IMG/VR virus record: IMGVR_UViG_3300032305_002820
Coordinates: 1-33,269 of that record
Source: a virus
Lineage: Duplodnaviria; Caudoviricetes
DNA: 33,269 nt
Reading direction: 5' to 3' (one strand)
In this document: positions 1 to 33,269 of the stretch, in pieces
Layout: every line of letters starts with the position of its first letter
Position numbering within the stretch: the stretch's first letter is position 1
Made by a program: the position numbers and the translations under genes
The notes under the pieces: generated by a model
Seen by the model: the letters and a program-made list of their open reading frames with translations, nothing else
Told to the model about the DNA's origin: nothing
Database searches by the model: none

Positions 1-123
1 AACCCACTTCAAACTTCTTTAATATGGCGCACTTTAGAATTTTACCCCCGAGTTTTTGGACACAAAACTCAATCAACAGCATGAAATCAGAGAACAAGCT
101 AGTTTTAAGCTGCTTGCTAACTT
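1..123. repeat. Terminal direct repeat (left copy); circular assembly overlap
   Basis: Bases 1-123 (AACCCACTTC...TGCTAACTT) are identical to 33147-33269. ORF 32851-33168 is followed across the join by the ATG at 33170 (= position 24). Confidence 0.97.
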
Positions 124-614
124 GCGCAAAATCTTGCAAGGAAACTGAAATTGGTATTTTTCCAATGTTGCGGGGCGAGTTAGCTTTTAATCTCGGCTTA
201 GACACTGAAAGAGTTTCTAAAATTATTGACGAATTAATAAATAACTACCCAAAGCAGATTTCATTCAAAAACGATCACGACCAACACTTCTTTTTTTTAA
301 AAAAGTTTTTTGAATATAATATCCCCGCGATGGAAGGCTCAAAAAAGATTTGCGAGGCTATTCATAAAGATTTTAAAAAGTCGGGTTATCTTTGCCCCGA
401 TTTTTGGGCTGAGTTTTCTAAAATAAACAAATATCACTTAAAAAAAGCTTACGAGGGTTTAACTAAATCAGACAATAATACGCCGTCACTTAGGAAAACT
501 TTGGATAAAATTTTTAAACTAGAAGAAGAATTTTATCCAAAAAATGAACAAAAACCAAAATCTCAGATAAAAATTACTCAGATCAAAACTTTTCATGCAG
601 ACCAAAACTTTTAA
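24..614 (+). CDS. Replication initiator / replisome-organizer-like protein (N-terminal wHTH); candidate plasmid-mode Rep
   Basis: The N-terminus MAHFRILPPSFWT...KLVLSCLLT...GIF...ELAFNLGLDTERVSKIIDEL fits the 'FW...K..y.yLLT....GI......A.etG' pattern of phage replisome organizer N-domains. It is followed directly by an origin-like intergenic region. Confidence 0.65.
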   Translation: MAHFRILPPSFWTQNSINSMKSENKLVLSCLLTCAKSCKETEIGIFPMLRGELAFNLGLDTERVSKIIDELINNYPKQISFKNDHDQHFFFLKKFFEYNIPAMEGSKKICEAIHKDFKKSGYLCPDFWAEFSKINKYHLKKAYEGLTKSDNNTPSLRKTLDKIFKLEEEFYPKNEQKPKSQIKITQIKTFHADQNF

Positions 615-640
615 TTTTTAAAATTACAAATTTTCTCTCT

Positions 641-659
641 TTTTTTGCGTAGCAAAAAA
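641..659. terminator. Short inverted repeat after rep gene (possible terminator or binding site)
   Basis: TTTTTTGC-GTA-GCAAAAAA. Confidence 0.35.
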
Positions 660-1030
660 GTTATTAACAAAGTTATTAACAGGCTTAGAGCTTTTATTTT
701 AGGCTATTGAGTTTTTTTTATCTTACAGGCTCTAAGTTCAAAAGTTATTAACAGGTAAAACAATCATTTTTCTATTTTTTTTATCTTTTAAAACCCTTGA
801 TACTGTAGGTTAAATTAAAAAAGTATTAAATTCTATTAAATTATATTAGATTTACCCTTAAAGTTAAAGTTAAAGTTAAAGTTTCTTTAGGGGGTGCAGG
901 GGGTAAAAAAACGGGTTATTTTTACAAATTAATTTAAGCCTATTTTTTAAGCTCAATTTTGGCGTTTTTAATCTTAAACTTATAACTTCTTATTTTTCTT
1001 GTTTAATGTGTCTTAAAGCTTAAATTTAGG
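658..1030. other. Putative replication origin (iteron/DnaA-box-like repeats, AT-rich unwinding element)
   Basis: AAGTTATTAACA occurs at 658-669, 670-681 and 742-753 (core TTATTAACA, 2 mismatches from DnaA box TTATCCACA). Also AGGCT x3 (681, 701, 727), 10-bp TATTAAATT repeats at 824-853, (TTAAAG)x4 at 858-881, GGGGGTGCAGGGGG at 890-903, and inverted arms AATTTAAGC (931-939)/GCTTAAATT (1018-1026). Confidence 0.6.
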
Positions 1031-1082
1031 GCTTTTATTTTTACTTAAAAACCTATTTTTATCTTAACAATTTAAAAAATGT

Positions 1083-1110
1083 TTGACACTTAATAACTGT
1101 CAATTTTAAT
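1083..1110 (+). promoter_or_regulatory. Promoter/operator upstream of the second replication operon
   Basis: TTGACA (1083-1088) forms an inverted repeat with TGTCAA (1098-1103); AT-rich -10 candidate at about 1105-1110. Confidence 0.45.
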
Positions 1111-1156
1111 AATTAGACTAATACCATTAATTAAATTAATCATATCTTAATCAACT

Positions 1157-1417
1157 ATGCCAGAATTTTCAGAGCTTCAACAGTTAGTACTAGAAATCAT
1201 TCAAGAGCATGCTCAAGGAAACTTGCTTGGTTCTTCTGAATGCTTCTTAACTAATGAGCAAATTTTTAATCTAATAACTCCCAGCTCTCTCAGGCCTTGT
1301 GAATATGGCTATTTAAGCACAGTTTTAAAAAGACTAGCGGTTAAAAAAAGAATTGAAGTTAGGACCAAGTCGGTTGTCGGTTATCGCGGCTTAAAAAGAA
1401 TTATTACGATTTTATAG
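1157..1417 (+). CDS. Hypothetical winged-helix DNA-binding protein
   Basis: 86 aa with helix-helix-wing pattern (LTNEQIFNLI...YLSTVLKRLAVKKRIEVR...RIITIL); abuts the downstream initiator. Confidence 0.55.
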   Translation: MPEFSELQQLVLEIIQEHAQGNLLGSSECFLTNEQIFNLITPSSLRPCEYGYLSTVLKRLAVKKRIEVRTKSVVGYRGLKRIITIL

Positions 1418-2422
1418 ATGACAGAGCAACAGCAAACTATTAAATACAAACAACGCGTCGCCTTCTCTCAAATTGACAATGCATTAATTTGCAGTAATGA
1501 GATTTCTGGCCTCGCCTTCAAGCTTTGGTGCTATTTGTTTTCTCGCCCCGAAAACTGGACTTTTTTCTGGTCAGATATTTTACCTAAAATGAAAGAGGGC
1601 AGAAACGCTGTAAAAAATGCAGGAAAAGAGTTGGAAGAGTTGGGTTATATGAGCAAAGAACAGAAAAAGGTTTACACTGGAAGAGGTAAGGAATGGAGGT
1701 GGGGCGGAATGGATATTTCTTTATTTTATGATCCGATGACTAACCCAATTTTTGCAGCAACCCTAGAGCAGAAAGAGCGAAGCCCGCTTACCGAAAACGG
1801 GTCATCGGGAAACGAGTCATCGGGAAACGAGTCATCCGGATACGAGATTGCGGGAAATGGGTCGACAAATAAAGAACTATCTAAACAAGACTTATCTAAG
1901 AAATATTTATCTAATTCTCTTTCTTTTCCACTTGCTAACGCAAAGAGAGAGAATTTTAGCAAGCCAAGTTTATTAGAAGTTAAGCAAATCTTTATTGATA
2001 AGAATTTAAAGAGCGATTCTGAAAAATACTTTTTATTCAGAGAAAAAACGAATTGGTCAGGAGTTAAAAATCTAGAAGCTGATATTTCTTGGTGGGAAAA
2101 CGGACATAAAGAAAAGTTCCCCGCCCTGCACATTGAAAAGAAAGAGGTTTTTATCGAGAAGAAGGAGGAAGAGCCTGACGAAATAAAAGATTTACGCTCT
2201 TCAATTAAAAGTCATATCTGTTGGCAATTCCCTAATTCATCCAACAAAGGGTCAGTTATTTACTCTAAGCTGTTTTTAGATGCTAGAATTGAGCAAAATG
2301 GTAACGATTATACTATCTTCGCAAAAGATCAGCAAGCTTTAAAATATGGAGAGGTTTTAGCAAAAATTAATGTCATTGTAGAAATAGAACCCAATGTCCC
2401 ATTAATAGGGAAAAATTATTAA
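1418..2422 (+). CDS. Phage replication initiator (lambda O-like architecture: N-terminal HTH, internal iterons)
   Basis: N-domain FSQIDNALI...ISGLAFKLWCYLFSRPENW...KEGRNAVKNAGKELEELGY, a repetitive linker (ENGSSGNESSGNESSG), and a C-terminal KPSLLEV...W module typical of phage Rep proteins. Confidence 0.8.
   Translation: MTEQQQTIKYKQRVAFSQIDNALICSNEISGLAFKLWCYLFSRPENWTFFWSDILPKMKEGRNAVKNAGKELEELGYMSKEQKKVYTGRGKEWRWGGMDISLFYDPMTNPIFAATLEQKERSPLTENGSSGNESSGNESSGYEIAGNGSTNKELSKQDLSKKYLSNSLSFPLANAKRENFSKPSLLEVKQIFIDKNLKSDSEKYFLFREKTNWSGVKNLEADISWWENGHKEKFPALHIEKKEVFIEKKEEEPDEIKDLRSSIKSHICWQFPNSSNKGSVIYSKLFLDARIEQNGNDYTIFAKDQQALKYGEVLAKINVIVEIEPNVPLIGKNY
1793..1916 (+). repeat. 15-bp intragenic iterons plus TATCTAA repeats (candidate lytic origin)
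   Basis: GAAAACGGGTCATCG / GGAAACGAGTCATCG / GGAAACGAGTCATCC / GGATACGAGATTGCG / GGAAATGGGTCGACA, then TATCTAA three times at 15-bp spacing. Confidence 0.75.
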
Positions 2423-2898
2423 ATTCCAACTACTTTCTTATAGCTAGATTTTAGAGTATTATCAAGTTCATCATTAATCTTGTTAATATCATTTTTTGAC
2501 AAATTAAATTCTATTAGTTCTAGCAATTCTACCCTCTGCTTTATTGCCAATCTTCCATAAGAAAATCTCCAGCTTTGCATGTTTATTTGGGCTGCAAAAT
2601 AGATAAGCTCCATCATCGACATTTTCTTGATGGGAATTAAAGCTTTGACATATGCTCCATTATTTCCCGTTCCTATAAATGGTTTTGTTTGCACTGTGGC
2701 AAAACCAAATCCACTTACTGCAATACACGGCACATTTGTTATAATTTCCTTGTCGCTTTGTGGTTCGACCATCTTCTCTACCCCGTTGTTTAAAGTCGTG
2801 CTAGACACAAGCGGGATAATCCCAGACGAATAGGATTCTAGGCTTTTTGAAGAGCATCTACTAACTTTAAACAAATTTGTTAAAATAATTTTAGACAT
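2419..2898 (-). CDS. Restriction-modification specificity (S/beta) subunit, single TRD
   Basis: G.IPLVSSTT.NNGV, IAVSGFGFATVQ.KPF and FSYGR motifs of HsdS/BcgI-beta-like TRDs. The likely ATG at 2898 overlaps the end of the upstream RM gene (the ORF track extends to 2919). Confidence 0.8.
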   Translation of the reverse strand: MSKIILTNLFKVSRCSSKSLESYSSGIIPLVSSTTLNNGVEKMVEPQSDKEIITNVPCIAVSGFGFATVQTKPFIGTGNNGAYVKALIPIKKMSMMELIYFAAQINMQSWRFSYGRLAIKQRVELLELIEFNLSKNDINKINDELDNTLKSSYKKVVGI

Positions 2899-4705
2899 AG
2901 TTCTCACAATTAATTTCAAAACTGACGATATTTCTAATAACCTTTTTCATTTCCTGCGTAATATTACTTTTAGTGAATTTATCCCAATCTTCATCTAAAA
3001 ATCTTTCAGGACAGCATTCTATTTCTTTATCTTTTACAATATTGGCGGTTTTGATTATTTTTGGTTTATTGAACTCTGTAGAGGATGATAAAAATGATTT
3101 TAGAGATTTTTTCATCTCTAATAAATTACCATCGTCCCTCCTTATCATCACTGATTTTTTCTTTGAGAATCCATCAACTAAATTAATGAAAATAGAGTCC
3201 TTTTTAAAATCATGCGGAGTGCCTTTTTGTATAATAATTGCTACAGTGCAAACGCTCACAGGATAGAATAAGTCATCAGGTAATTTAATTACTGCCTTTA
3301 AGGTATTTTTTTCTAACATTGATTTTCTCCAAGTTAGACACTCTCGACTAGAAGTTACGATTGAATTTGGAATAACGGCAAAAAGTAGTCCGCCTTTTTC
3401 CATTTTATTTAGAGCAAAATCTATAAATTTATATTCTTTCTCATCGCCTTTTTTAAGAGCGAAAGGAGGGTTCATCAAAACTTTTGAAACTTTTAAATCT
3501 GTAAATTTCTTTGTTGTGAAGCAATTTCCTTCTTCAAGGTTAGCTCTTCCATCGCCTCTAAATATCATATTAACAAGTGCCAAAGCTACAACATCTGGGT
3601 CCTGCTCTATACCGTAAATACCTTCTGTTTTAAATTTTTCTAATTCCTCTTTATCAACTTCACTTTTCACTTTATCAAATGCAGAAACTAGAAACCCACC
3701 AGTTCCGCAAGCAGGATCTAAAACTTTGTCTTTGTTTGTGATATTCAGAACATCAACGGCAAATCTTGTTATATGTCTTGGCGTTAAAACAATGCCAATT
3801 TCTTTTGAGCCGTTTCCATATTTTAAAAACTGTTCATAGAATCTTCCTAAAATATCAGTCCCAGAGTTCATGGCGGAGCGAATATTAATACTATCAAGCT
3901 CCTGCATTGTTTCTAACAATGCCTTTCTAAATTTAATATGATTGTCGGGAGTTGGAGGAACTGATATTTTTATGCAGTGAATAAATTCTCTTTTGTCCTT
4001 CTCATGGAGGATTTCTTCGGCTCTACTATTGAGTTCATTTATCATCGAAAAACAATTATTTTCACGATTTATATAATTGTCTTTCAGTAATGCCAAAAGC
4101 ATTGTAGCAACAACTCTCGCTCTATTGTTTTTGTTAATAGAGCCATTGTGCAGTATCTCATTAATTTTTATCGCTTTCTGATAATAAACTTCATCAGGCA
4201 CTACATGTTCTTTTATATAGGGACTGTTTTTATCTAGTATTTCTCTGGCTAATTCTTTGTCTAAGAACCCAGTAGTTTTTTTCTCATTTATTTCTATTTC
4301 TGACCAATCACCATTATGAAAGAAATAGTTTTTTACTACATAACTATCATTGTCATTACCAGCTACGGCACTAAAAAATGGTGCTAAGATTTTTGTTTTA
4401 TTCAAAAGATTGCAGTAACTCTTACAGTCCTTTATTGCTTGCTCTATTTGCTTGTGTTCACTTTTAGCTTCTACAATCCAAAAAGTGTTATTTTTGATAA
4501 CTATAACATTTTCGGGCTTCACGGTTTTTAAATGCTTTTTTATCAATTCATTGTTTAAGCATTCACCTTGTGTATAAACTTCTCCATCTGCATAACGATT
4601 GGGATTTTTTACATTCCAGCCCAATTCTTTTAAAGAATTTTCAATAAAAACATAAGCTCTAAACTCGCTGTCTTTCGTAGCTGAATTAGCTTTTTTATTT
4701 TGCAT
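2891..4705 (-). CDS. Type IIB/IIG fused restriction endonuclease-N6-adenine methyltransferase (BcgI alpha-like)
   Basis: N-terminal PD-(D/E)xK-like PE...IVEAK; DILGRFYEQFLKY, GIVLTPRHIT, motif I DPACGTGGFL and motif IV NPPF. Confidence 0.88.
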   Translation of the reverse strand: MQNKKANSATKDSEFRAYVFIENSLKELGWNVKNPNRYADGEVYTQGECLNNELIKKHLKTVKPENVIVIKNNTFWIVEAKSEHKQIEQAIKDCKSYCNLLNKTKILAPFFSAVAGNDNDSYVVKNYFFHNGDWSEIEINEKKTTGFLDKELAREILDKNSPYIKEHVVPDEVYYQKAIKINEILHNGSINKNNRARVVATMLLALLKDNYINRENNCFSMINELNSRAEEILHEKDKREFIHCIKISVPPTPDNHIKFRKALLETMQELDSINIRSAMNSGTDILGRFYEQFLKYGNGSKEIGIVLTPRHITRFAVDVLNITNKDKVLDPACGTGGFLVSAFDKVKSEVDKEELEKFKTEGIYGIEQDPDVVALALVNMIFRGDGRANLEEGNCFTTKKFTDLKVSKVLMNPPFALKKGDEKEYKFIDFALNKMEKGGLLFAVIPNSIVTSSRECLTWRKSMLEKNTLKAVIKLPDDLFYPVSVCTVAIIIQKGTPHDFKKDSIFINLVDGFSKKKSVMIRRDDGNLLEMKKSLKSFLSSSTEFNKPKIIKTANIVKDKEIECCPERFLDEDWDKFTKSNITQEMKKVIRNIVSFEINCENYV

Positions 4706-4761
4706 AAACTCCGTTTTTGATTACCAAATTAAATATATCAGTTTTAAAAAACTAATAATTG

Positions 4762-4808
4762 TTGACTGAATAAAATTATTTCTTTAAATAATTAAATAAA
4801 GTTAATTA
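4762..4808 (+). promoter_or_regulatory. par operon promoter with RHH operator-like repeats
   Basis: TTGACT at 4762-4767 with an AT-rich -10 at about 4785. The motif TTATTTCTTTAAAT..AAAGTTAATTA is repeated downstream of the par operon (5974-5998). Confidence 0.5.
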
Positions 4809-4837
4809 ATAAAATCGAACACTATAAATAAAAAGTT

Positions 4838-5005
4838 ATGTCTAAAAATTTGATAAATGTTAATGTTAGACTCGATGAGGCTCTACAAAAAAGATTAAAA
4901 ATTTTAGCCGCTCAAACAAACTCTAAAATTCAAGAAATGATGGCTAGATATGTTGAGGAAGGTTTAAAAAAAGAAGAAAAACAAATTAATGAGAAAAATG
5001 ACTAA
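4838..5005 (+). CDS. Small ribbon-helix-helix protein (CopG/ParG/Arc-like), not in ORF track
   Basis: Hand translation: MSKNLINVNVRLDEALQKRLKILAAQTNSKIQEMMARYVEEGLKKEEKQINEKND*. It has an alternating beta-strand followed by two helices, and its stop overlaps the parA ATG (ATGACTAA). Confidence 0.8.
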   Translation: MSKNLINVNVRLDEALQKRLKILAAQTNSKIQEMMARYVEEGLKKEEKQINEKND

Positions 5006-5636
5006 TTTTGTTTTAGCTGTCGTGGGTCAAAAAGGAGGGGTTGGTAAAACAACCCTAGCCTACAATTTTTTTGTAAGAGTTTTAAAAGGTGATCCAACGG
5101 CGATTTTAATTGATTGCGACAATAATCAATACAGCTCTTTTGAATTATCTTTAGATAGAAAAGACTTTGGAGTAAAGCCTGACTTGCTAATTAAAAACAT
5201 GTCTAGCGAAGAGTTGGAAAAGCAAATCCTAGAAATTAGTAAAAAACACAAAACAATTATTATTGAGTCGGGTGGAAGAATTGATAAGGAAATGACGATT
5301 GCTATGCGTCTAGCTGATAAAATAGTAATGCCAATAAAATCTTCAGTAATTGATATTAAAACTATTTCAAACGTTGAGGCTAACTTAGCTTTATCAAAAA
5401 ACACTCAAATTAAGTGCGTACTCGTTCCCAACATGATTAAAAGCGAGGCATCACTTAACTTTTTAATCAACCAAGCTAAGCCTGAATTTTTTAAATTTTC
5501 AAAAGCTTTTTTAAAGGATAGGTCTGCTTATGTAACCTCTTTCGACCAAGGAAAAGCTATTTTTGAATTAAAGCCAAAAAATAAAATCGCTGACCAAGAA
5601 TTTGAACAATTATTTCAGGAGATATTTAATGACTAG
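4998..5636 (+). CDS. parA: ParA/ParF-family partition ATPase (type Ib, no N-terminal HTH)
   Basis: Deviant Walker A GQKGGVGKTT, LIDCD and ADKIVMP motifs; about 212 aa. The start is at 4998 or 4989. Confidence 0.92.
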   Translation: MTNFVLAVVGQKGGVGKTTLAYNFFVRVLKGDPTAILIDCDNNQYSSFELSLDRKDFGVKPDLLIKNMSSEELEKQILEISKKHKTIIIESGGRIDKEMTIAMRLADKIVMPIKSSVIDIKTISNVEANLALSKNTQIKCVLVPNMIKSEASLNFLINQAKPEFFKFSKAFLKDRSAYVTSFDQGKAIFELKPKNKIADQEFEQLFQEIFND

Positions 5637-5952
5637 ACAGATTATACAGCCCCGCAAAACATTAGAAGAAAAAATTGCAGAAATGAGCGATGAAAAAACC
5701 ACGCTCATTCAAGAACCAACTCAACAATTTGAGGTTATTAAAAGCTCTGATTTAATAGAAAGGGAGCAAGAGCAAGCAATGAAAAAATATAACCTCGTTA
5801 AAGTTAGAAAGGGTTCTAGAGTTGATATTGATGAAGACTTGCACAAAGAATTTAAGATTGCGGCTATTAGAAGCGGAAAATCGCAAAAAGATTGGTTAGA
5901 AGAACTTATTCGTGAAGCAGTTTTTAAAGCAAAAAGAAAGTTTGAAAAATAA
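5629..5952 (+). CDS. ParG-like RHH centromere-binding protein
   Basis: Flexible N-terminus plus C-terminal RHH (RVDIDEDLHKEFKIAAIRSGKSQKDWLEELIREAV). The ATG at 5629 overlaps the parA stop (ATGACTAG). Confidence 0.8.
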   Translation: MTRQIIQPRKTLEEKIAEMSDEKTTLIQEPTQQFEVIKSSDLIEREQEQAMKKYNLVKVRKGSRVDIDEDLHKEFKIAAIRSGKSQKDWLEELIREAVFKAKRKFEK

Positions 5953-5956
5953 TAAA

Positions 5957-5998
5957 CTTTCTTCTTTACTTCTTTATTTCTTTAAATAAAGTTAATTA
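5957..5998. repeat. Candidate centromere/operator: CTTT boxes at 8-bp period
   Basis: CTTT at 5964, 5972 and 5980 and inverted AAAG at 5988, separated by 4-bp AT spacers; near-duplicate of 4776-4808. Confidence 0.45.
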
Positions 5999-6050
5999 CA
6001 TTGAACATTTATCAAACATTTAGTATCTACTAATTTACTTTAAAAAAACC

Positions 6051-6287
6051 ATGATAATCAGCCTCAACCAAAGTGATTTGGAAAAAGTAAAAGAATCTCT
6101 TTCTGAAATAAAAGATAGGTTAGTTGAAGAGTATCTTGAAAACTTCGGTATTACTGAAAATGAAGAGTTAGCTTGTTCTGATTATAAAACCTATAATGCA
6201 GAAGTTTGGAATGATGAAAGTATTGAAGATGCTAAGCAATATGCTAAAGAGGCAATAAAAGAAGCTCTTATTCAAATTACTAATTAA
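6051..6287 (+). CDS. Small acidic hypothetical protein (in the gam position of a gam-bet-exo-like cluster)
   Basis: 78 aa, about 19 D/E versus 8 K/R by hand count; first gene before bet. Confidence 0.6.
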   Translation: MIISLNQSDLEKVKESLSEIKDRLVEEYLENFGITENEELACSDYKTYNAEVWNDESIEDAKQYAKEAIKEALIQITN

Positions 6288-6314
6288 ATTAACTTAATCT
6301 CAAATAATAAATTT

Positions 6315-7238
6315 ATGCTAGAAAACCAAACACAATTAATAACAAAAAAAGATCCTCTTTTAGCTTCTTTAGATGTAAGAAACGTTGGAATAAGAGAATT
6401 TAGAGTTATAAAAGATATTCTTTATCCAAACGTGCAAAAAGATGAAACTTTGTTAATGGCGATTGATTATTGTAAGTCGAGAAAGCTGGATATAATGAAG
6501 AGACCTATTCAGATAGTTCCTATTTGGGATTCTAAAACTAAAACAATGAAAGATACTATTTGGACTTCTATCGCTGAAATTAGGACGACAGCAACGAGAA
6601 CTGGTAAATATGCAGGAAGAACAGAGGCGGAGTTCGGGGAAGAGGTAACGGAAAATCTAGGTGGTACGGAAGTGACTTACCCAAGATGGTGTAAAATTAC
6701 GGTATTCAGACTTGTAGAAAACCAAAAATGCTCTTTTTCCGCAAAGATTTTTTGGAAAGAAGCTTATAAGACTATTAAGAATGATAGCCTTGCACCAAAT
6801 TCAATGTGGGCTAAAAGAGCTTACGGACAATTAGAAAAATGTTGCGAGGCCGCTGCTTTACGCTCCGCTTTTCCCGAAGAATTTGGCAACGATTATATCG
6901 CTGAAGAGGCTTTTGATCAAAATGAAGCTATAGTTACCGCAAAAAGCAAAACGGAAGCGGCTCACTTACCCTTGAAAGATATTATCGAAGCTTCTTTTGA
7001 ACCCTTAAACAAAGAAGAGGTTATTGATGAGGCTGGCGACTTATTGCCACAAGTTGACGAGAAATCAGAAGAAATTTACAATAGGGTTACAAAAAACTTA
7101 GACTCTCTTATGAATAAGAAAGCGGTTGAAGCTTATACAAGCGGCATGGCTGAAGAGTTAAAATATTTAGCTCAAACAAGAGCTGATTATCACGCGCACG
7201 TCATATCTTTAATAAAAGATAAATTAGCGAGATATTAA
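6315..7238 (+). CDS. bet: Single-strand annealing recombinase, Bet/RecT family
   Basis: YCKSRKLDIMKRPIQIVPIW, RTTATRTGKYAG and PNSMWAKRAYGQLEKCCEAAALRSAFPEE motifs. Confidence 0.92.
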   Translation: MLENQTQLITKKDPLLASLDVRNVGIREFRVIKDILYPNVQKDETLLMAIDYCKSRKLDIMKRPIQIVPIWDSKTKTMKDTIWTSIAEIRTTATRTGKYAGRTEAEFGEEVTENLGGTEVTYPRWCKITVFRLVENQKCSFSAKIFWKEAYKTIKNDSLAPNSMWAKRAYGQLEKCCEAAALRSAFPEEFGNDYIAEEAFDQNEAIVTAKSKTEAAHLPLKDIIEASFEPLNKEEVIDEAGDLLPQVDEKSEEIYNRVTKNLDSLMNKKAVEAYTSGMAEELKYLAQTRADYHAHVISLIKDKLARY

Positions 7239-7349
7239 AAAATTTGAAAATAACTCCGATAACACTATTATGGTTCTGATGCCAAGAACCAAATTAATGT
7301 AATTTTGTTATCTGCTATTGAGGCGGAATAATATCTAAATTAGGTAGGC

Positions 7350-7526
7350 ATGAAATATAAAAAAAAAGAACTATACAAAACCGAAGCCGTGCAGCTAGCG
7401 GCAGTGAAGAGGTATGGCTTTGCGATTAAATACATCAAAAACCCCACCGAGGCCGTTTTTGATTATCTCTATAAAACTGATAGAAGGGCTTTTGATGATT
7501 ATTGTGAGGTGATAGACCATGATTAA
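7350..7526 (+). CDS. Small protein with a single DUF4116-like repeat, not in ORF track
   Basis: Hand translation: MKYKKKELYKTEAVQLAAVKRYGFAIKYIKNPTEAVFDYLYKTDRRAFDDYCEVIDHD*. AGGTAGG lies upstream, and the stop overlaps the exo start. Confidence 0.65.
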   Translation: MKYKKKELYKTEAVQLAAVKRYGFAIKYIKNPTEAVFDYLYKTDRRAFDDYCEVIDHD

Positions 7527-8601
7527 ACAGGGAACGGAAGAATGGCTTAAAGCTAAACAATCAACTATAGGCGGCTCTGAAATATATGCTTTAATCTATC
7601 ACTATTGTCAAAAAGATTTAGAAAAACTCGGTTTTGATTTAAATAAAGAAAGGCCGTTTCGCACAATCCAAGAAATCTTTCTGAAAGTAAAATTTGGAGC
7701 TAAACTTTCAAAAATAGATCAAGTTTTTGCTGATTTTGGCATTGGCATGGAAAATTACGTTGCTCAAAGACTACAAAGTGAAATGCCGAAGCTACAAGTC
7801 GAAACTTCTGACGAATTTATTGTTAATAAATCGATACACCCTTTAGCTTCCTGCTCTCCAGACGGTTATGTTTCAACTATCGCTGATTCGGTTATTTTAG
7901 ACTTTGACGGCAAAAAAGAAATAAATCATTCGTCGGGTAGGGGCGCATTAGAAATAAAAACAGCTAATTATTTTGCTGGGTTTACTGCCGAGCAAGGAAC
8001 AAAGTTGCAATACTTGTTTCAGCATCAATTTCAAATGATGGTTCTTAATTTGTCTTGGGGGCTTATAGCGGTATTAGTTCCGAAGCAAAAAGAATATGAC
8101 GAGCCTTTTTTTAAGGGTTATGTCTTAGCTAAAGCAGAAGCAGAAAAATATTCTGAGTTTGATCAATACTATGATCTTGTTTATTATATTCACCCAGCTC
8201 TTCCAGCGTTCCAAGAGTTGATTTTAAAGGCACTAGAAGCGTTTCAAGCTGATTTAGACGCTTATGATATTAATCCCAAGGTTTTTCCTCAAAATAGCGA
8301 AGATTTGGTGGGTTTGCAAAGGGAAAAACAATTGTGGGCGCAATTAATGCCCGACCACTTTGGTTCTAAAATTTTAGAAGAAAATTCTAAAATAGAAAGC
8401 TTACTCTTAGAGAGAGCTGAAGCTTATAAAGAATCCTTATTCGCTACTCAAGCAAAAGATAAAATTGAAACTGAAATCTTACAATTAATTAAATCTAGCA
8501 AACTTGATAAATTTTGTGAAATCAAAGGAAAAAGTCAAAAAATTATTTGGGATAAAAGGGGCTTCTTGCGCTATTATATTAATAAAGAAAGCGCTACTTA
8601 G
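7519..8601 (+). CDS. YqaJ/lambda-exonuclease family protein
   Basis: QGTEEWL..K...IGGSEI, FG..ME, ASCSPDG, LEIKT and Q.Q.QM motifs. Confidence 0.88.
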   Translation: MIKQGTEEWLKAKQSTIGGSEIYALIYHYCQKDLEKLGFDLNKERPFRTIQEIFLKVKFGAKLSKIDQVFADFGIGMENYVAQRLQSEMPKLQVETSDEFIVNKSIHPLASCSPDGYVSTIADSVILDFDGKKEINHSSGRGALEIKTANYFAGFTAEQGTKLQYLFQHQFQMMVLNLSWGLIAVLVPKQKEYDEPFFKGYVLAKAEAEKYSEFDQYYDLVYYIHPALPAFQELILKALEAFQADLDAYDINPKVFPQNSEDLVGLQREKQLWAQLMPDHFGSKILEENSKIESLLLERAEAYKESLFATQAKDKIETEILQLIKSSKLDKFCEIKGKSQKIIWDKRGFLRYYINKESAT

Positions 8602-25596: not shown

Positions 25597-25599
25597 GTT

Positions 25600-25818
25600 T
25601 TAATTATAGTCTTTGATGTGATAACCCTTGGATTTTATGCCGTCTAAGTAGGATTTTTTAGTAGTGTGAATCTTATTATCAGCGTGACTAAAAATCCCGC
25701 CATGCTTGCTAATATAGCCGTCAACTGTTAAATCCTCTTTTCCTTGGCGAAAAGGTCTTATTGACTCTTTTTCAATCCAAAGAGCCTTGCCGTTTTCGTA
25801 AACTAGCTTTTTAATCAT
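25600..25818 (-). CDS. Small hypothetical protein
   Basis: 72 aa between portal and scaffold, translationally coupled. Confidence 0.65.
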   Translation of the reverse strand: MIKKLVYENGKALWIEKESIRPFRQGKEDLTVDGYISKHGGIFSHADNKIHTTKKSYLDGIKSKGYHIKDYN

Positions 25819-27977
25819 TAAACTTGTGCGGGCTGGTTGGAGTTTCTTATTTGATCGTTCAAGATTTCTGTTCTAGCTTTCACGATCATGTCAAGTCTGC
25901 TTGCTTCTCTGTCTGCTTGTCTATTAACGTCTTCAAACTCTAAGTTGTCTTGATGCTTCTCTATATCAAATTTAACTTGAGCTTTCTTTATATCTAACTC
26001 TTGCTGTGCTTGATCAGCTTTGATTTGAAGCTCTTGTTGTTTTAGTTGTAATTCTTGTTGCTTTAACTGTAGCTCAGCTTGTGCAAGCATCTCTTCAGCT
26101 GAAGGTTGCTTTTGCTCTTCTTTCTCTTCTTTTCTTTGTAAAGATTCCTCGACATTCCTGCCGACTTTGAAAGGCTTACTTATAAACATTAAGAATTGTT
26201 GGAATGCTTCGGGCGTTATGATTTGAGATTGAAGCAGCGGGAAAAATGCACTAGAGAAATTGCTAATTGCAGTTATATATTCGATTCTACTTTGCTTTTC
26301 CTGCTGCTGATCAATTCTTATTGTTGAGTCGGTCTCAACATCAACTAAAAAAGTGCGCATTTTGTCGCTCTTAATCAAAAAATCTAATTCTTGAAGCTGC
26401 TGCGGGGTTATTGCATAACCTTTAAGTAATTCCAGCGGCTGCTTTAAAGTTTCTTTAAACCCTTTTTCTGCTTGCTGCTTAAGCATATCAATTTTTTCAT
26501 TGATTTGCGGGTCATTTGGGTCAATTTGCTTTTGAGCTTCCATCATCAAGACCTTTTGCCTGTCTCTTGTCTGCGCTGCTATTGTCTCAATATCTATGAC
26601 TTTTAAGCTAGTCATTTCTGCTAGCTCTTGAGTTGTGTAGTTTTCAACTGCTAGCTCTATTAGTAATCGAATTAAATCTCGACTCCAGAACTCTATTTCT
26701 TTTTGGATAGGCTGTATTCTTGATATAGCAAAATTACCCTTCAATTGCTGCGCTGTTGCAGTTTCTGAAGCTGTTGAAACGCCCCTCACAATATCAGAAA
26801 TACCCGTGATGTCTCTTATTGCGTTGATGATCTCAATTTTATGCTGCTGTAATTCTCTTATAGTTAAAATAATCTCGTTCAAAGGCTTAAATAAGACTAA
26901 ATCACTAACTTTTTGAATTCCTGTTGTGCTGCGTAAAGGAGAGAAAGAGCCATCATCGCCATTAAACAGATTTTCAATATCAGACTGTTCGGCGGTAGAA
27001 GAATAAACACCTGTTGCTTTGCATTGCTCTATTAGAGACTTAATTCTTGCATCTATCTTGTTTAACTCTTCCGCTTGGCTCTTATATAGTCTATAGAGCG
27101 GAATAGGGGTTAATGAAGTTGGGTCAGATTTGCTGCCTAGAGGTGCTGGAATCGGGAAGAATCCTTTTAAATTGTAAGGGTTTTCTTGTTCGTCTAAAAG
27201 AAGGCCGTTTCCGCCGATAGTTAAAAATAAAACTTTCTCGCTCTCTCTATCCCAAACTTCCCAAATCTCAGCAACTTTAAAATTATCGTCATCGCTAGTT
27301 ATTGAGCTGCTTGAGTAATCGAGTCGCTTTTTATTCAAATCAACCGCACTTCCTTTTTTACCAAAATCTTCAACTAACTCATCCCTTGTTTTAAAGTGTC
27401 TGAACGCTATCCAACGAACTTTAGACCACTCTTTTTCTTGCGAAATCCTGAAATTATTCCAGTCAACATATTCTAAACGACATTTTTTTTCAGAATTATC
27501 GATTTCTTGGATAATCTCTCCGCCGTCTTCAATTTCGATTACTTCCTCGGGATCATACACAACTCTCGCAACACCACGTCCACCAATGAGAAAATCGTCT
27601 CTACATTTGCCAATAACGTCTTCAGCTTCTGAATCGCTAAGATATAAATTGACCACTCGCTCCATCATTTCAGAAGCTATTTTTGCAACCTTGTTTTCGT
27701 CTGTAAATCTTTGTGTTATGTTAGCTTTTGGAAGCTTGGAGAATATAAGAGGGCGTAATGTCTGTGTATTTGACCAAAAAACATTGTAACGCTTAGATTC
27801 TATGCCGCTTTTTGTATTATATTCGTCTTTATAAATTTGAAAATACTTTTCTGCTTCGTCTCTCCAAGGTTTTTCGTTTTGATCTGAGCTTTCTATTTCT
27901 TTAGTCCAGAACTCAACAATTGCGCTTTCTTTTTTTGATGAAGAATTTTTGCTGTTTGTTTTAGTTTCTATATCCAC
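25818..27977 (-). CDS. Portal protein (long, with C-terminal Q-rich barrel as in P22-type portals)
   Basis: NVFWSN.QTL.P and ITGISDIVRG...ETATAQQLK motifs, a long C-terminal QQELQLK coiled coil, and position after terL. Confidence 0.9.
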   Translation of the reverse strand: MDIETKTNSKNSSSKKESAIVEFWTKEIESSDQNEKPWRDEAEKYFQIYKDEYNTKSGIESKRYNVFWSNTQTLRPLIFSKLPKANITQRFTDENKVAKIASEMMERVVNLYLSDSEAEDVIGKCRDDFLIGGRGVARVVYDPEEVIEIEDGGEIIQEIDNSEKKCRLEYVDWNNFRISQEKEWSKVRWIAFRHFKTRDELVEDFGKKGSAVDLNKKRLDYSSSSITSDDDNFKVAEIWEVWDRESEKVLFLTIGGNGLLLDEQENPYNLKGFFPIPAPLGSKSDPTSLTPIPLYRLYKSQAEELNKIDARIKSLIEQCKATGVYSSTAEQSDIENLFNGDDGSFSPLRSTTGIQKVSDLVLFKPLNEIILTIRELQQHKIEIINAIRDITGISDIVRGVSTASETATAQQLKGNFAISRIQPIQKEIEFWSRDLIRLLIELAVENYTTQELAEMTSLKVIDIETIAAQTRDRQKVLMMEAQKQIDPNDPQINEKIDMLKQQAEKGFKETLKQPLELLKGYAITPQQLQELDFLIKSDKMRTFLVDVETDSTIRIDQQQEKQSRIEYITAISNFSSAFFPLLQSQIITPEAFQQFLMFISKPFKVGRNVEESLQRKEEKEEQKQPSAEEMLAQAELQLKQQELQLKQQELQIKADQAQQELDIKKAQVKFDIEKHQDNLEFEDVNRQADREASRLDMIVKARTEILNDQIRNSNQPAQV

Positions 27978-27980
27978 TTT

Positions 27981-29444
27981 TTATTCGTAGTTTTGAGCTT
28001 CTAAACTATACTTCTTCAATAAATCCTTTTTAAAATTGCTATGGTTAAAGTCTTTATACCACTGTTCACTCGATTCTAGCTGCGTTTTAGGAAGATCAAC
28101 CACCACAGGTCTACTCATACACAAATAGCGCAAAGTATCAACTGCGTGATCTTCTAGATCGCTGTTTAAATCCTCGGGCTTAGAAACATCGTATTGCATC
28201 ACTGGCAACGTTCTTAATAAATTCTTACAATCGCTAACTATGTAGAGCAGGGGCTTATCATCCACCCCGTTTAATCTAGCTCTAATTTGTTGCCATCCCG
28301 AAACTCTTTTATTGTCCGCTGGTCTCCAATAAATATCTTCTTTAGCCATCTGATCCGCTATAGATTCCCCAACAGAGACATCAAAAATAGCAGGATCGGC
28401 CACCATATCGTTCATTTTTTCACCTAACTGCATTGTTTTAGTATTTTTAGCAATTTCAGGTGGGTTAATTTTTATTCCTTCGTTTGCTTTACCTGTCGTG
28501 CCGTAATATTCACGATAAATAATGATTGAGCCTCTTGGAAATACTCTTCTAATACCTCCGACGTTTACAAGTGAGCCGTCAGAAACAGCCCCCCATAATA
28601 CGCAGAACGGCCTTGAATATCCCCAGTCAAAAGCTCTAATTCTAAACCACTCATTAGGTAGCAAGAAAGGCTCAACAACGTGAATATCTTTATCGAATTT
28701 ATCAAAATAAGCTCCTTCTATAGCGTCCCAGTCGCCATTTAACATCGCTTTAGCTAAAGCTCCGCCTAAACCAATTAACTTGTTGGCGTAAAATGGATCG
28801 TTTGCCATCATTGTCGGGTTATCATCTAACTTGGCGGGTATAAATTGCCTAAGCATTCCACCTTCTTCGGGTAACATCTGGCGGATTTCCATTGATTTAC
28901 AATTATCAATGAACATTTCTTTAACAAATTGATGACCAATTCCAGTCGGATTTGACCCCGCTATAATAAGCGGTAACTTTTTTTTATATTTTTCTGGAAC
29001 TTGTAAAGAACCAAGGCGACAGCGTCCACGCAAGAATTTATAAATCTTTTCTGAGAAGTGTGTTAGCTCATCAATTAGCAGAACGTTTATTTCTGCGCCC
29101 TGGTATTTTATGACGTCTTTCTCATGCTGACAGTGAGCTAAATAAATTTTAGCCCCATTCCAGAAAGTTATTTCGCTTTCTGAAATTCTAACATGTTTAG
29201 ATTTAATAAAAAGAGATAGTAAAGCAGCAAAGCCACTCGCTCCCTCAATATGATTCTTCGCTAAATCTGCGAAGATACGTCGAAATAAGTAAATTTGTAT
29301 GTTTGGAATTTCTAGAGCTAAAACAATTGCAATTACTCGCATTGTGTGACTCTTGCCACCTCCAGCTGCTCCGCCGTAAAGAATCTCAGTAGCTTCACTT
29401 AAGAAGCATGCTGATTGCTTCGGGTGCAGCTCTAAATTAATCAC
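27981..29444 (-). CDS. terL: Terminase large subunit
   Basis: YGGAAGGGKS (Walker A), LLIDELTHF (Walker B), GSNP.GIGH, AFDWG and EDHAVDTLRY motifs. Confidence 0.96.
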   Translation of the reverse strand: MINLELHPKQSACFLSEATEILYGGAAGGGKSHTMRVIAIVLALEIPNIQIYLFRRIFADLAKNHIEGASGFAALLSLFIKSKHVRISESEITFWNGAKIYLAHCQHEKDVIKYQGAEINVLLIDELTHFSEKIYKFLRGRCRLGSLQVPEKYKKKLPLIIAGSNPTGIGHQFVKEMFIDNCKSMEIRQMLPEEGGMLRQFIPAKLDDNPTMMANDPFYANKLIGLGGALAKAMLNGDWDAIEGAYFDKFDKDIHVVEPFLLPNEWFRIRAFDWGYSRPFCVLWGAVSDGSLVNVGGIRRVFPRGSIIIYREYYGTTGKANEGIKINPPEIAKNTKTMQLGEKMNDMVADPAIFDVSVGESIADQMAKEDIYWRPADNKRVSGWQQIRARLNGVDDKPLLYIVSDCKNLLRTLPVMQYDVSKPEDLNSDLEDHAVDTLRYLCMSRPVVVDLPKTQLESSEQWYKDFNHSNFKKDLLKKYSLEAQNYE

Positions 29445-29884
29445 CTATTTAAAATAAGATTGACTTGCGGCACAAGAGGAGCTTCCGAATCGCCTCTAAT
29501 AGTTGTTGAATCTCCGTAACGTTTCGGCTTAAGCTTTGAAGCTATCCATTTTCTAGCATCTATTCTAAGCCTAGCTTGATTTACTGCGCCTGTATCTATT
29601 TTTCCAAATTGATCAAGTGGCATTACTTCATCAGCGATCTGTAATATCTCTTCAGCGTATAAATCTGCGGCGGCTTCTTTAGCTACATAATAGCTATCAG
29701 AAAAGCTTTTCTTATTTCTAATCCAGCTAAAAATCGTTCTACTAGATGGGAACTTGGGATTATTTTTGACAACATCAGCAATAGAAATTCCTGTAGCTAT
29801 CAAATCACAGATTTGATTGGCTACTTCTTCAGAATACTTTGAGCTATATCTTGTTTTTCCCTTTGTTTTTAGTTTTTTATTCAT
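29441..29884 (-). CDS. terS: Terminase small subunit (Sf6-like)
   Basis: YSEEVANQICDLIATG...PSSRTIFSW...ARLRIDARKWIASKLKPKRYGD. Confidence 0.92.
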   Translation of the reverse strand: MNKKLKTKGKTRYSSKYSEEVANQICDLIATGISIADVVKNNPKFPSSRTIFSWIRNKKSFSDSYYVAKEAAADLYAEEILQIADEVMPLDQFGKIDTGAVNQARLRIDARKWIASKLKPKRYGDSTTIRGDSEAPLVPQVNLILNR

Positions 29885-29970: not shown

Positions 29971-30011
29971 ATTATGGAAAAAACCATAAAAAACGAGTTC
30001 CCGATTGTCAA
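29971..30011 (-). promoter_or_regulatory. Late promoter (pR'-like) with sigma70-dependent pause element
   Basis: TTGACA (30011-30006)-N17-TATGGT (29988-29983), with a second -10-like hexamer CATAAT at predicted +1..+6 (29976-29971). Confidence 0.7.
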
Positions 30012-30547
30012 GCGATTTCTTTCTTGTAATAAATAGCTAGTTGAACAAGGGCAGTGATTATTTCGTCTTTAACTGTTGCGTGACGCTTTCTTAGCACCTT
30101 CTCTATTTCATTAATATTTTTTTCAGCACATAGAAACATATCTAAGATGTAAGATTTTTCTTCTAAGTTTTGTTTTGCTTTGTAGTAGCGCAAATAAGCA
30201 TCAATTTGTTTTTGGCTTGGTTCTTTGCTTGAATTTCTTGAGGAGAGGAACGAAGAGCCATCATAAGTTTGTTTGGCCATGTTATCTTTAATGCTGTAAA
30301 GATAATCTCTTGAATATTGAAAGCCTGCCGCAAAAAGCTTGCTGCAAATGCTATTATTTTGATATAAAGACCACAGCGGGCTTTGTATAGCGTATGCAAT
30401 TAGATTATTCTTCATAATATAACCTCTCACTAGCTTACCTTGCTTTTTGAGCTGTTTAATCATGTCAAAATTGATGTTCGAGCCTATTTTACAAGCTGAA
30501 GAGTCAGAAATCGGGTGATTTATTTTTTCTTTAAAAGCTAGTTGCAT
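30008..30547 (-). CDS. Late gene regulator, putative Q-like antiterminator (DUF6456-like)
   Basis: Directly upstream of the late promoter and terS; AAG..Y.RDY motif and a C-terminal HTH-like segment (INEIEKVLRKRHATVKDEIITALVQLAIYY). Confidence 0.65.
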   Translation of the reverse strand: MQLAFKEKINHPISDSSACKIGSNINFDMIKQLKKQGKLVRGYIMKNNLIAYAIQSPLWSLYQNNSICSKLFAAGFQYSRDYLYSIKDNMAKQTYDGSSFLSSRNSSKEPSQKQIDAYLRYYKAKQNLEEKSYILDMFLCAEKNINEIEKVLRKRHATVKDEIITALVQLAIYYKKEIA

Positions 30548-31338: not shown

Positions 31339-31366
31339 ATTGCGCATAATGCTGATTATGAGGGTA
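31339..31366 (+). other. dif-like XerC/XerD recombination site
   Basis: ATTGCGCATAA-TGCTGA-TTATGAGGGTA versus E. coli dif GGTGCGCATAA-TGTATA-TTATGTTAAAT: XerC arm 9/11, 6-bp core, inner TTATG of the XerD arm conserved. It is intergenic between convergent genes. Confidence 0.65.
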
Positions 31367-31680: not shown

Positions 31681-31962
31681 CTATTCTTTGTTAGTTTTCA
31701 TTAAATCAATCGCGCTATTAATTGAGCTATTAATCTTATCTAATCTTTCTTTTAAATCTTTGTTTTCAATTCTACAGACTACATTCTCACGCACTGCGTG
31801 CGTGATTTCTTTTTTTTTAAACCAAGTTGAAACCGTTCCTGAACTTACTCCATAAATTTTTGCAACCTTCGCATGTTTCACCTTCTTTTCCTTTAAAAAA
31901 AGAACAAATTCTTCAAATTGTTCTTTAGTTAAAAATTGATTTTCTGCTTTTTTGCGTGCCAT
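31681..31962 (-). CDS. Cro/XRE-type HTH transcriptional regulator
   Basis: KVKHAKVAKIYGVSSGTVSTWF helix-turn-helix and a C-terminal coiled coil; no S24 autopeptidase domain. Confidence 0.78.
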   Translation of the reverse strand: MARKKAENQFLTKEQFEEFVLFLKEKKVKHAKVAKIYGVSSGTVSTWFKKKEITHAVRENVVCRIENKDLKERLDKINSSINSAIDLMKTNKE

Positions 31963-32314: not shown

Positions 32315-32372
32315 CCTGCTACTTAAACAAGAAAAACAACCCAAATAATAAAACTGCTTTTCCTTTTTTTAT

Positions 32373-32504
32373 ATGAAAACAAAAAATTTTAAATACAATA
32401 TCTCTGTAATTTTAATAAGCTTATGCTTACTAACAGCCTCAATTGACGCATTAAGAGAAGATTTAATCTATAAGCTTGATTTAGCTACCTTAGAGAGGGT
32501 TTAA
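32373..32504 (+). CDS. Small hydrophobic peptide (43 aa), not in ORF track
   Basis: MKTKNFKYNISVILISLCLLTASIDALREDLIYKLDLATLERV*; next ATG 2 nt after the stop. Confidence 0.5.
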   Translation: MKTKNFKYNISVILISLCLLTASIDALREDLIYKLDLATLERV

Positions 32505-32506
32505 TA

Positions 32507-32677
32507 ATGACATATCTTTTACTTCTCATAGTCATGCTTTGCACTGTAAATCTATTAGTAAACCTAAGGAATCTATCTTGTTGTCGCATCATCGGCGAAA
32601 AGTTGGGTTTTATTAAAACAGCGGCCGAAATTCGCGCTGAAATGTTCCAAAATTTATGGAAAAATAGAAAAAAATAA
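32507..32677 (+). CDS. Small membrane peptide (56 aa), not in ORF track
   Basis: MTYLLLLIVMLCTVNLLVNLRNLSCCRIIGEKLGFIKTAAEIRAEMFQNLWKNRKK*. Confidence 0.55.
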   Translation: MTYLLLLIVMLCTVNLLVNLRNLSCCRIIGEKLGFIKTAAEIRAEMFQNLWKNRKK

Positions 32678-32722
32678 AACTTAGTAATCCCCTCATTTCA
32701 AGGAATTATTATTTTTTCAAGA

Positions 32723-32825
32723 ATACCCAGTGGCGTTTTGTCACTTGGTATAGGGGGCGGTTTATCTTTCGTAGGGACTTGACCGCCCACCTACCCAGCA
32801 TTAACTGGTAGCCGTTTAAGGCTAC
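32723..32825. ncRNA. Putative structured regulatory RNA (leader or countertranscript) upstream of the rep operon
   Basis: GC-rich island with four consecutive, partly overlapping hairpins (32723-32751, 32751-32793, 32791-32811, 32808-32825), several with G-U pairs. Confidence 0.55.
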
Positions 32826-32857
32826 TTATAAAATATTTATAAGTTTGTTCATGTCAA
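32824..32857 (-). promoter_or_regulatory. Candidate antisense promoter with palindromic operator
   Basis: Minus-strand TTGACA (32857-32852)-N16-TATTTT (32835-32830); perfect IR ACTTATAAA-ATA-TTTATAAGT (32824-32844). Confidence 0.45.
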
Positions 32858-33168
32858 AACAAAAACAACAATCGAGTCAAATTACTTTTTTTTTTGAAAA
32901 AAAAGACAATCGAGAAAAAGAAGCTATTTCAAGCGTTCTGAACTATCTAAGTTCGTTAATTAAGTCCGCAAAAAAGAATAAACTCGAAATTTTTAACGAT
33001 AAAAATTGGTCAATTTTTGAAAAAAAATTAAACGATTTAAGTATTCATAATCAAAATAGTATACTTCAACGCATCTTCAAAATAGACTTAAAACTTTTAA
33101 AAAAAGGAAATTCAAAGCTTAATAAGTTAGCTTACAAATCCCTTGAAACCCACTTCAAACTTCTTTAA
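32851..33168 (+). CDS. Basic hypothetical protein coupled to the rep gene across the circular junction
   Basis: ATG at 32851 (the track starts at TTG 32845); the stop is followed after 1 nt by the ATG at 33170 (= position 24). Confidence 0.6.
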   Translation: MSKQKQQSSQITFFFEKKDNREKEAISSVLNYLSSLIKSAKKNKLEIFNDKNWSIFEKKLNDLSIHNQNSILQRIFKIDLKLLKKGNSKLNKLAYKSLETHFKLL

Positions 33169-33269
33169 TATGGCGCACTTTAGAATTTTACCCCCGAGTT
33201 TTTGGACACAAAACTCAATCAACAGCATGAAATCAGAGAACAAGCTAGTTTTAAGCTGCTTGCTAACTT
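33147..33269. repeat. Terminal direct repeat (right copy); circular assembly overlap
   Basis: Identical to 1-123. Confidence 0.97.

Follow-up and report, generated by a model that had tools for sequence, protein, structure and literature searches.

This analysis concerns the replication, partition and resolution functions of a small tailed phage (Duplodnaviria; Caudoviricetes) represented by the IMG/VR record IMGVR_UViG_3300032305_002820, the whole of which, 33,269 nucleotides, is referred to as the window. Of its 82 listed open reading frames (ORFs), 47 were scanned against PHROGs, Pfam and NCBIfam, the rest being alternative-frame or duplicate entries. An earlier account drawn from the letters alone, called here the sequence-only reading, had described a compact, circular, short-tailed plasmid prophage with two rep genes, a type Ib ParA/ParG cassette, a Xer-like site, a full virion and lysis set and an intact restriction-modification (R-M) system, and with no tyrosine or serine recombinase or protelomerase. 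That inventory was borne out, with qualifications for the partition matches, the Xer-like site and the holin that are given with the respective results. The features of the replication, partition and resolution module are as follows (RHH, ribbon-helix-helix; wHTH, winged helix-turn-helix; PWM, position weight matrix).

24-614, plus strand: rep1, a short replisome-organiser-like protein (phrog_6251/1701; atlas 0.95; phmmer)
615-1156, no strand: likely plasmid origin, 78% AT, with three host-type DnaA-box-like 9-mers at 661, 673 and 745 and a short tandem hexamer
1157-1417, plus strand: small protein, predicted to be probably winged-helix, common to G002, G025 and the non-phage contig G062:C46 (43%)
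1418-2422, plus strand: rep2, likely initiator, with an N-terminal DnaB/DnaD-type wHTH, a linker and a C-terminal DnaA-domain-I-like fold (PHROGs, model)
4776-4808, plus strand: candidate parS/operator repeat, upstream copy (repeat search; putative function)
4838-5005, plus strand: RHH/Arc-like protein (PHROGs, Pfam)
4989-5636, plus strand: type Ib-like ParA ATPase, likely start near 4998 (PHROGs, Pfam, NCBIfam)
5629-5952, plus strand: ParG/Omega-like RHH adaptor (Pfam match below cut-off; position conserved in relatives)
5966-5998, plus strand: candidate parS repeat, downstream copy (repeat search; putative function)
31339-31366, minus strand: intergenic Xer/dif-like site of 28 bp (PWM of host sites, strict core)

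The two rep genes are replisome-organiser-like by PHROGs. Proteins of the rep1 type lie upstream of the origin gap in ParA-bearing elements, and phmmer linked the window copy to G002, L302, G026 and G025 and, weakly, to four others. Within the gap the three boxes fall inside 93 bp, and a density of three per 200 bp was reached by none of 400 shuffles; related ParA-bearing elements hold four boxes (G002), three (L300) or two (G025, G026, G028 and L302), and ParA-less kin at most two. CtrA boxes were not enriched in the window (6 found, 6.1 expected). Rep2 has no plasmid Rep match in Pfam, and the observed signals are its fold, the slot it shares with Rep3 proteins and the box cluster. Structural modelling of rep2 (pLDDT 72, pTM 0.36) revealed an N-terminus like the wHTH of primosomal DnaB/DnaD proteins (Z 10.3, root-mean-square deviation 3.2, 100 residues aligned) and a C-terminus with middling similarity to DnaA domain I (Z 5.7, deviation 3.4, 70 aligned); Foldseek returned no match for rep2 at E <= 0.001. 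The same slot is occupied by Rep3 in G026, by Rep3 and DnaA_N in L302, and by DnaA_N in G027.

The partition cassette places ParA between two RHH proteins. ParA is 215 aa long with Walker A at the N-terminus and no N-terminal HTH, and the downstream RHH protein matches Omega, ParG and Arc weakly, the first two below cut-off, an arrangement of type Ib. The repeat flanking the operon is present in the window and in L302 and was not detected in G002, and its binding by the adaptor is putative. Against 50,697 phage records the sole match to this ParA was phage D6, and a single-sequence ParA scan of viral contigs confirmed none of its eight candidate stretches.

Six-frame searches of the window with PF00589, PF00239, PF07508 and PF16684 gave no candidates, nor did any of the 47 ORFs match a recombinase in the three libraries, and no N15-type protelomerase was found; the six-frame search also gave no candidate for a DnaB helicase. 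What the window does carry is the Xer-like site, which is real yet degenerate: its XerC-side arm agrees with the best host site at 10 of 11 positions and its XerD-side arm with the host consensus at 8 of 11. With a matrix built from 36 host sites it scores 16.2 bits, a value reached by 3 of 200 shuffles, and this significance is moderate. The strict dif core was present in 24 of 400 shuffles, so the window core alone is only suggestive. The core was found in four of six near-complete ParA-bearing genomes and in none of seven ParA-less ones (Fisher p = 0.021, for a pattern defined post hoc and genomes that are not independent), and the two core-less ParA-bearing genomes carry an enzyme of their own, a 199-aa tyrosine recombinase in G027 and a 223-aa serine resolvase-type protein in G028. 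A dif-like match in L014 was dropped, as it lies inside a capsid gene. In G006 and G007 (L099-L102) a motif identical to the XerD-side arm is repeated between late genes with the partner arm missing, probably a promoter or regulator site.

Comparison with the virion kin of the window revealed how this module is distributed. Scans with the large terminase subunit (TerL) gave at least 87 loci (the second scan covering the best 80 of 547), of which the 24 longest low-GC records were searched. PF00589 was found in none of these 24 relatives (0 of 8 near-complete), and the integrase is thus missing in ParA-less relatives too, a lineage trait that is not diagnostic of the plasmid state. The window type of ParA occurred in one of the 24, the 34.5-kb circular record G002, whose TerL gene (L012 8741-11371) has an insertion of ~390 aa that by eye looks like an intein. 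DnaB_C, by comparison, was present in 6 of 7 near-complete ParA-less kin versus 0 of 7 ParA-bearing records. The major capsid protein (MCP) of G004 is 84% identical to that of the window, and this phage has an O-like initiator and DnaB; G003 resembles it, its partial MCP reaching 85%. A quick tree of 28 portal rows puts the window together with G003, G004, G010 and G011 (support 99). Since this clade includes the DnaB-type G003 and G004, and G002 and G027 are placed elsewhere in the tree, the rep/par module appears to have been acquired, lost or exchanged on more than one occasion, whichever the direction.

Alignment of ParA brought in another five viral records, G025-G029, which are 37-49% identical, and further metagenome contigs. 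Most ParA-bearing relatives keep one gene order: a rep1-like gene, the gap, the small protein, the initiator, cargo, RHH, ParA, RHH, a small ORF, an annealing protein and an exonuclease. The virions attached to this module differ, G027 being a distant podovirus of the same lineage and G026 having, by eye, a sheath-like gene. G026, myovirus-like and circular at 49 kb, has a Rep3 initiator, carries an acyltransferase as cargo and holds two dif-like sites (L213 218-245; L214 3641-3668) and a small serine resolvase-type gene (L214 4233-4883); a weak protelomerase match in it was rejected, the 493-aa ORF concerned looking like a tail sheath. The same order recurs on G062:C46, an 8.6-kb contig of a host-family metagenome-assembled genome (MAG), which has the small protein (43%), rep2 (46%) and an RHH-ParA-RHH set whose ParA belongs to another subfamily (L280 119-2833). 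Genes for histidine kinase, LysR and MFS proteins adjoin them, and none on the contig was recognised as a phage gene; the contig is a candidate for a native plasmid in this family of Rickettsiales. By these comparisons the replication module, and not circularity or the lack of an integrase, would be the diagnostic feature, because the closest virion kin use an O-like initiator and DnaB (6 of 7) while the ParA-bearing records are without DnaB.

The host was approached through several kinds of likeness. Of the ParA matches in GTDB species genomes, only one was close (49%, the next at most 32%, among the best 80 of 273 matches); it lies in the Rickettsiales MAG UBA2645, on a 38.4-kb phage contig that hardly differs from G025 in the 14.9 kb compared. 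UBA2645 is listed in Ca. Gamibacteraceae, described in the available part of bioRxiv 2021.08.31.458344 as an aquatic family of likely ectosymbiotic ancestry; the family set used here, 126 genomes, may not coincide exactly with it. The SNase-type nuclease of the window has its four strongest matches (57-59%) all in the UBA2645 family and others at 39% or less across 401 Rickettsiales genomes. XerCD-sized tyrosine recombinases were found in 125 of the 126 genomes, and the family has a two-arm site, mostly in single copy. On the 1.2-Mb contig G165:C1, octamers that we take to be of the FtsK-orienting polar sequence (KOPS) type run forward in 4 of 4 cases before this site and reverse in 17 of 17 after it, up to 874 kb, a G-rich variant found mostly as inverted pairs having been set aside; the switch of polarity near 246,992 marks the site as dif. 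Eight TTAT(C/T)AACA-type boxes lie upstream of hemE (928,685-928,905), where the polarity flips back, and hemE is the oriC position in Rickettsiales according to the text available of PMC1914354. The boxes in the gap of the window are the same 9-mer as this hemE-linked cluster. As a side result, KOPS polarity and hemE-linked boxes serve to locate dif and oriC in the UBA2645 family, the dif spacer varying between species. Another family MAG, G136 (C180, C158; L277-L279), holds a distant virion relative, a prophage from the same podovirus lineage in the broad sense, that has its own integrase and adjoins dcd and holA-like genes. From these likenesses, Ca. Gamibacteraceae (the UBA2645 family, Rickettsiales) is the probable host, and we hold this assignment with good, if not full, confidence.

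The reading that best accommodates these observations, to which we give a probability of roughly 70%, is that of a complete short-tailed phage living as a circular plasmid prophage and using the DnaA and XerCD of its host. The plasmid prophage of the sequence-only reading is thereby upheld, on the strength of its rep/ori/par module; two of the grounds offered for it, circularity and the missing integrase, do not discriminate, being common to ParA-less relatives, and along with the terminal repeat each was considered as an argument for the plasmid state and rejected. During lysogeny, rep2 would bind the AT-rich gap together with host DnaA at the three host-type boxes and recruit the host replisome or helicase, replication starting within 615-1156. 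The RHH adaptor would act on the repeats flanking the par operon while ParA segregates the copies, and plasmid dimers would be resolved at the dif-like site by host XerCD. The type IIG-like R-M system would shield the host and may stabilise the plasmid as possibly addictive cargo. The lytic state would comprise Bet/Exo-assisted replication, headful packaging and lysis. The lineage likely changes its lifestyle through exchange of the rep/par module, a switch by one module being suggested because the same virion is combined with an O-like initiator and DnaB in close relatives.

Two other lifestyles have to be weighed against it. The phage could be lytic or persist in a carrier state, its par genes and host-dependent replication serving DNA positioning or a short pseudolysogeny and no heritable plasmid prophage being formed. 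Close kin without integrase and without the window type of ParA may indeed be lytic, no clear immunity repressor was found among the window ORFs in the three libraries, and Par systems can serve other purposes (PMC8026635, as far as its available text goes). Yet DnaB gives way to a set that moves as one, made up of par, a plasmid-type initiator slot, host origin boxes and a resolution function, the same gene order stands on the non-phage contig G062:C46, and swappable cargo of benefit to the cell lies beside rep (R-M in the window, the acyltransferase in G026), all of which make this account improbable. Alternatively, the phage might behave like a mobile element that integrates by making use of Xer (IMEX), entering the chromosome at host dif through host XerCD and keeping the plasmid module for its excised form. 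The XerCD-sized recombinases of the host family would allow for this, and the attachment sites of TLC and the gonococcal genomic island (GGI) likewise combine a good XerC-side arm with a degenerate XerD-side one, as described in the part of PMC5357621 available. Those sites, however, keep a central region homologous to dif, whereas neither 3-bp half of the window spacer is matched in any of the 38 host-family sites, read either way, although the dif of the true host may differ; the spacers of all 38 end in TA and that of the window does not. Dimer resolution is therefore favoured over integration, and a contig from run X1 holds the whole circle in one piece, which leaves the IMEX-like account decidedly improbable.

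A plasmid lifestyle in another low-GC host, such as a different lineage of Rickettsiales or Holosporales, is unlikely but deserves some weight: the host link is indirect, built on homology, motifs and binning, and the best ParA matches among catalogued plasmids are weak ones in Legionella, Ca. Megaera and Paracaedimonas (27-29%). Five types of link nevertheless lead to one family, namely the ParA contig, the rep/small-protein contig, the SNase, the origin boxes and the dif arms, the last two compared within the UBA2645 family and perhaps not specific to it.

Several points count against the plasmid prophage and its host as proposed. Both are inferred, not derived from reads or culture; neither partition genes nor circular contigs are proof of a plasmid stage, as the text of PMC8026635 available to us states, and headful packaging alone yields circular assemblies, so that the circularity of the window carries no weight here. 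The module was seen in just 2 of 126 family MAGs, binning can err, and no spacer or direct host link was obtained. G062:C46 may be chromosomal. Box clusters are weak or missing in G027 (one box), L304 and G062:C46 (none in either), and a rep2-like protein occurs in the partial record G017, where ParA of the window type was not found. The match of ParA to NF041546 (E 6.5e-30) lies below the cut-off of that model, as does the ParG match of the adaptor. All 36 host sites outscore the Xer-like site of the window (at least 18.9 versus 16.2 bits), the strict core pattern was set after the sites had been seen, with G006 and G007 being near-identical, and the PWM alone fails to separate ParA-bearing from ParA-less genomes, the ParA-less G006 and G007 reaching 17.6 through a motif without the core. 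The ParA-less kin yielded no tyrosine recombinase, and serine recombinases were not searched for there. Lastly, neither a CI-type repressor with a peptidase domain nor a toxin-antitoxin pair was recognised among the window ORFs by PHROGs, Pfam and NCBIfam.

The remaining features of the window are listed below (REase-MTase, restriction endonuclease-methyltransferase; TerS, small terminase subunit).

1-123, no strand: terminal repeat, copy of 33147-33269, probable assembly overlap
2419-4705, minus strand: cargo slot 1, type IIG-like REase-MTase (604 aa) and short specificity subunit (166 aa) (Pfam)
6315-9393, plus strand: Bet/RecT, YqaJ exonuclease, SNase-type nuclease and VRR-NUC nuclease (PHROGs, Pfam, NCBIfam), the SNase nearest to host-family genes
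9941-11299, minus strand: lysis cassette of lysozyme, Rz-like spanin and membrane proteins, perhaps a second spanin and a presumed holin (PHROGs, Pfam)
12600-14018, minus strand: cargo slot 2, DNA methyltransferase and a restriction nuclease split across frames (PHROGs, Pfam)
14042-22581, minus strand: short tail, with a presumed fibre-associated protein, fibre, three ejection-type proteins, nozzle (20329-21885) and adaptor (PHROGs, Pfam, model)
22581-29884, minus strand: head and packaging, with accessory proteins, MCP, scaffold, portal, TerL and Sf6-like TerS (PHROGs, Pfam, NCBIfam)
30008-30547, minus strand: probable late-gene regulator by position, with a weak DUF6456 match and homologues in G027 and L304
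31681-31962, minus strand: HTH protein, candidate repressor or Cro-like regulator, with a 50% identical homologue in G025 (PHROGs, Pfam)

Closure of the genome rests on positions 1-123 being identical to 33147-33269, which gives a circle of 33,146 bp, and the IMG/VR record is noted as having direct terminal repeats and a CheckV completeness of 100%. The Logan contig of run X1 (33,141 bp) spans window positions 1-16700, has its breakpoint elsewhere (9187/9193) and closes from 16700 to 1 through 16,446 letters at a flat depth of 10.7; X1 is possibly the source sample, which makes this an independent assembly and not an independent sample. Because the terminal repeats of G002 and G026 have the same length of 123 bp, the repeat is probably an assembler overlap.

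Library scans identified TerS, TerL, portal, MCP, adaptor, nozzle, three ejection-type proteins and fibre, with the scaffold assigned by position, as well as lysozyme and an Rz-type spanin; the holin has no HMM match among the 47 scanned ORFs and is presumed. The MCP scores above the cut-off of NF033394 (capsid_maj_Podo) and the adaptor matches the SU10 adaptor in Pfam. A 518-aa tail protein labelled amidase in PHROGs was modelled from 22 sequences (pLDDT 79), and the model matches nozzle, hub and tail proteins of Pa223, Pan3, VP1, P22 gp10 and Sf6 (E 1e-21 to 1e-14). No sheath or tape measure was matched in the scans of window ORFs, and a podovirus morphotype with a short non-contractile tail is well supported because the predicted 518-aa fold agrees with podovirus nozzle and hub proteins. 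The TerS, being Sf6-like, suggests packaging by the headful mechanism. The window shares its virion gene set and order with Myxococcus phage Mx8 (Myxoctovirus), Brucella phages Tb and Pr, and Bradyrhizobium ppBjS10J-1, the gene order agreeing with Mx8, which, unlike the window, encodes an integrase and a DnaC-like loader. The best cultured matches are Bradyrhizobium ppBjS10J-1, Myxococcus Mx8/Mx9 and the Brucella phages (portal 27-33%, MCP 24-38%), and amino acid identities to Myxoctovirus and the Brucella Tb/Pr genus (portal 27-29%, MCP 24-36%) fall short of genus-level similarity.

The HTH protein at 31681-31962 is a candidate for the regulator of the lifestyle switch. Between the lysis and tail genes (11300-12453) sit a membrane-anchored 206-aa ORF and a 178-aa ORF. 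The former (11300-11920) was considered as AbiEii, a lead only (0.91, 158 shared features) that found no PADLOC or Pfam support; the latter presumably resembles a permuted papain-like amidase, its phrog_1128 match being weak. The ejection-type protein at 19202-20320 ends in a Peptidase_S74 chaperone domain, usual on tail fibres, and a short ORF at 7350-7526 contains a repeat unit that is also multicopy in G017 (L105 17501-18127).

Both R-M loci behave as cargo. The type IIG-like locus at 2419-4705 looks intact; in the second, the methyltransferase is whole and the nuclease (12600-13108) is split over two frames. A relative in run X3, from another study, is ~92% identical and retains rep1, the C-terminal part of rep2, par and Bet, with window positions 2389-4753 and 12458-14142, that is, both R-M slots, replaced; in run X8 the first locus is present without phage genes. 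It is this replacement and the separate occurrence of the first locus that mark the two as cargo.

Few complete Rickettsiales phages have, to our knowledge, been described (WO of Wolbachia). If the proposed reading is true, these would be the first phage-plasmids, together with a native replicon, for an uncultured and probably protist-associated family, and the window would represent a tailed phage seemingly reliant on host XerCD in place of a resolvase of its own. Capsids that are 84% identical with one module different also offer a natural comparison in which a switch between non-plasmid and plasmid lifestyles becomes testable. The possibility of an undescribed group, raised by the sequence-only reading, is supported, as no described group matches. 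In PLSDB no plasmid-sized record carried the virion genes of the window (portal, nozzle and MCP) at E < 0.01, the only strong match being a 3.2-Mb Burkholderia replicon; no Wolbachia records appeared in those searches, the presence of pWALBA1 in that PLSDB copy not having been checked. The supplements of a catalogue of IMG/VR phage-plasmids (PMC13221032) contained none of the records of five relatives, and literature on Rickettsiales phage-plasmids, prophages, podoviruses and protists and on Gamibacteraceae gave no account of the group, subscription papers being mostly outside its scope.

Small size and a short tail, which that reading had set against the larger myo- or siphoviral phage-plasmids, have published precedents in cp32 (~30 kb) and in the F116 community, which includes podoviruses (PMC7969092, in its available part). 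Like the window, P1/D6, N15, SSU5, the F116 community and cp32 combine phage with partition and replication genes and, by the same partial account, need no integrase. Most proven circular plasmid prophages carry one or two resolvases (PMC8026635, in the portion available), unlike the window. The 28-bp two-arm site for host XerCD with a degenerate XerD side recalls cer/psi resolution sites and IMEX attP sites (PMC5357621, likewise in part); as a dif-like site it resembles the latter, but its spacer is not homologous to host-family dif, and no accessory sequences were recognised. Rickettsia plasmids have dnaA-like and parA replicons (PMC4750851; bioRxiv 2022.02.09.479837; both in the parts available), in which a DnaA-related initiator beside parA recalls the DnaA-domain-I-like C-terminus of rep2. 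This likeness is architectural only: no Rickettsia plasmid stands among the best 25 of 26 rep2 matches, nor among those of the G027 DnaA_N initiator, and no sequence link was detected.

A further analogy is with the Wolbachia elements pWALBA1 and pWCP, which, in the available text of PMC9560607, share with the window a Rickettsiales host, a probable one in the case of the window, ParA-, ParG- and Arc-like genes, TerL, portal and a phage stabilisation protein. As described there, pWALBA1 is 18.8 kb long with DnaB, RelBE and transposases and no detected tail genes, whereas the window has full head, tail and lysis sets and is without DnaB. Of the pWCP/pWALBA core (ParA, ParG, HP1 and RelBE, with DnaB in pWALBA1 and pWCP), the window lacks DnaB and a RelBE match. 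What is new here is the likely Rickettsiales host and the apparently swappable replicon, small or podoviral phage-plasmids and partial Wolbachia ones being already known. Taken together, an exchangeable cassette (rep1, DnaA-box origin, initiator slot, cargo and RHH/ParA/RHH, with a host Xer site or a small resolvase) may underlie an undescribed family of Rickettsiales phage-plasmids, a proposal whose chances we consider evenly balanced. Such a cassette would move among podoviruses, myoviruses and plain plasmids and turn DnaB-type phages into plasmid prophages, and in this family the reduced phage-like plasmids of Wolbachia would have their intact counterpart, competent to form virions.

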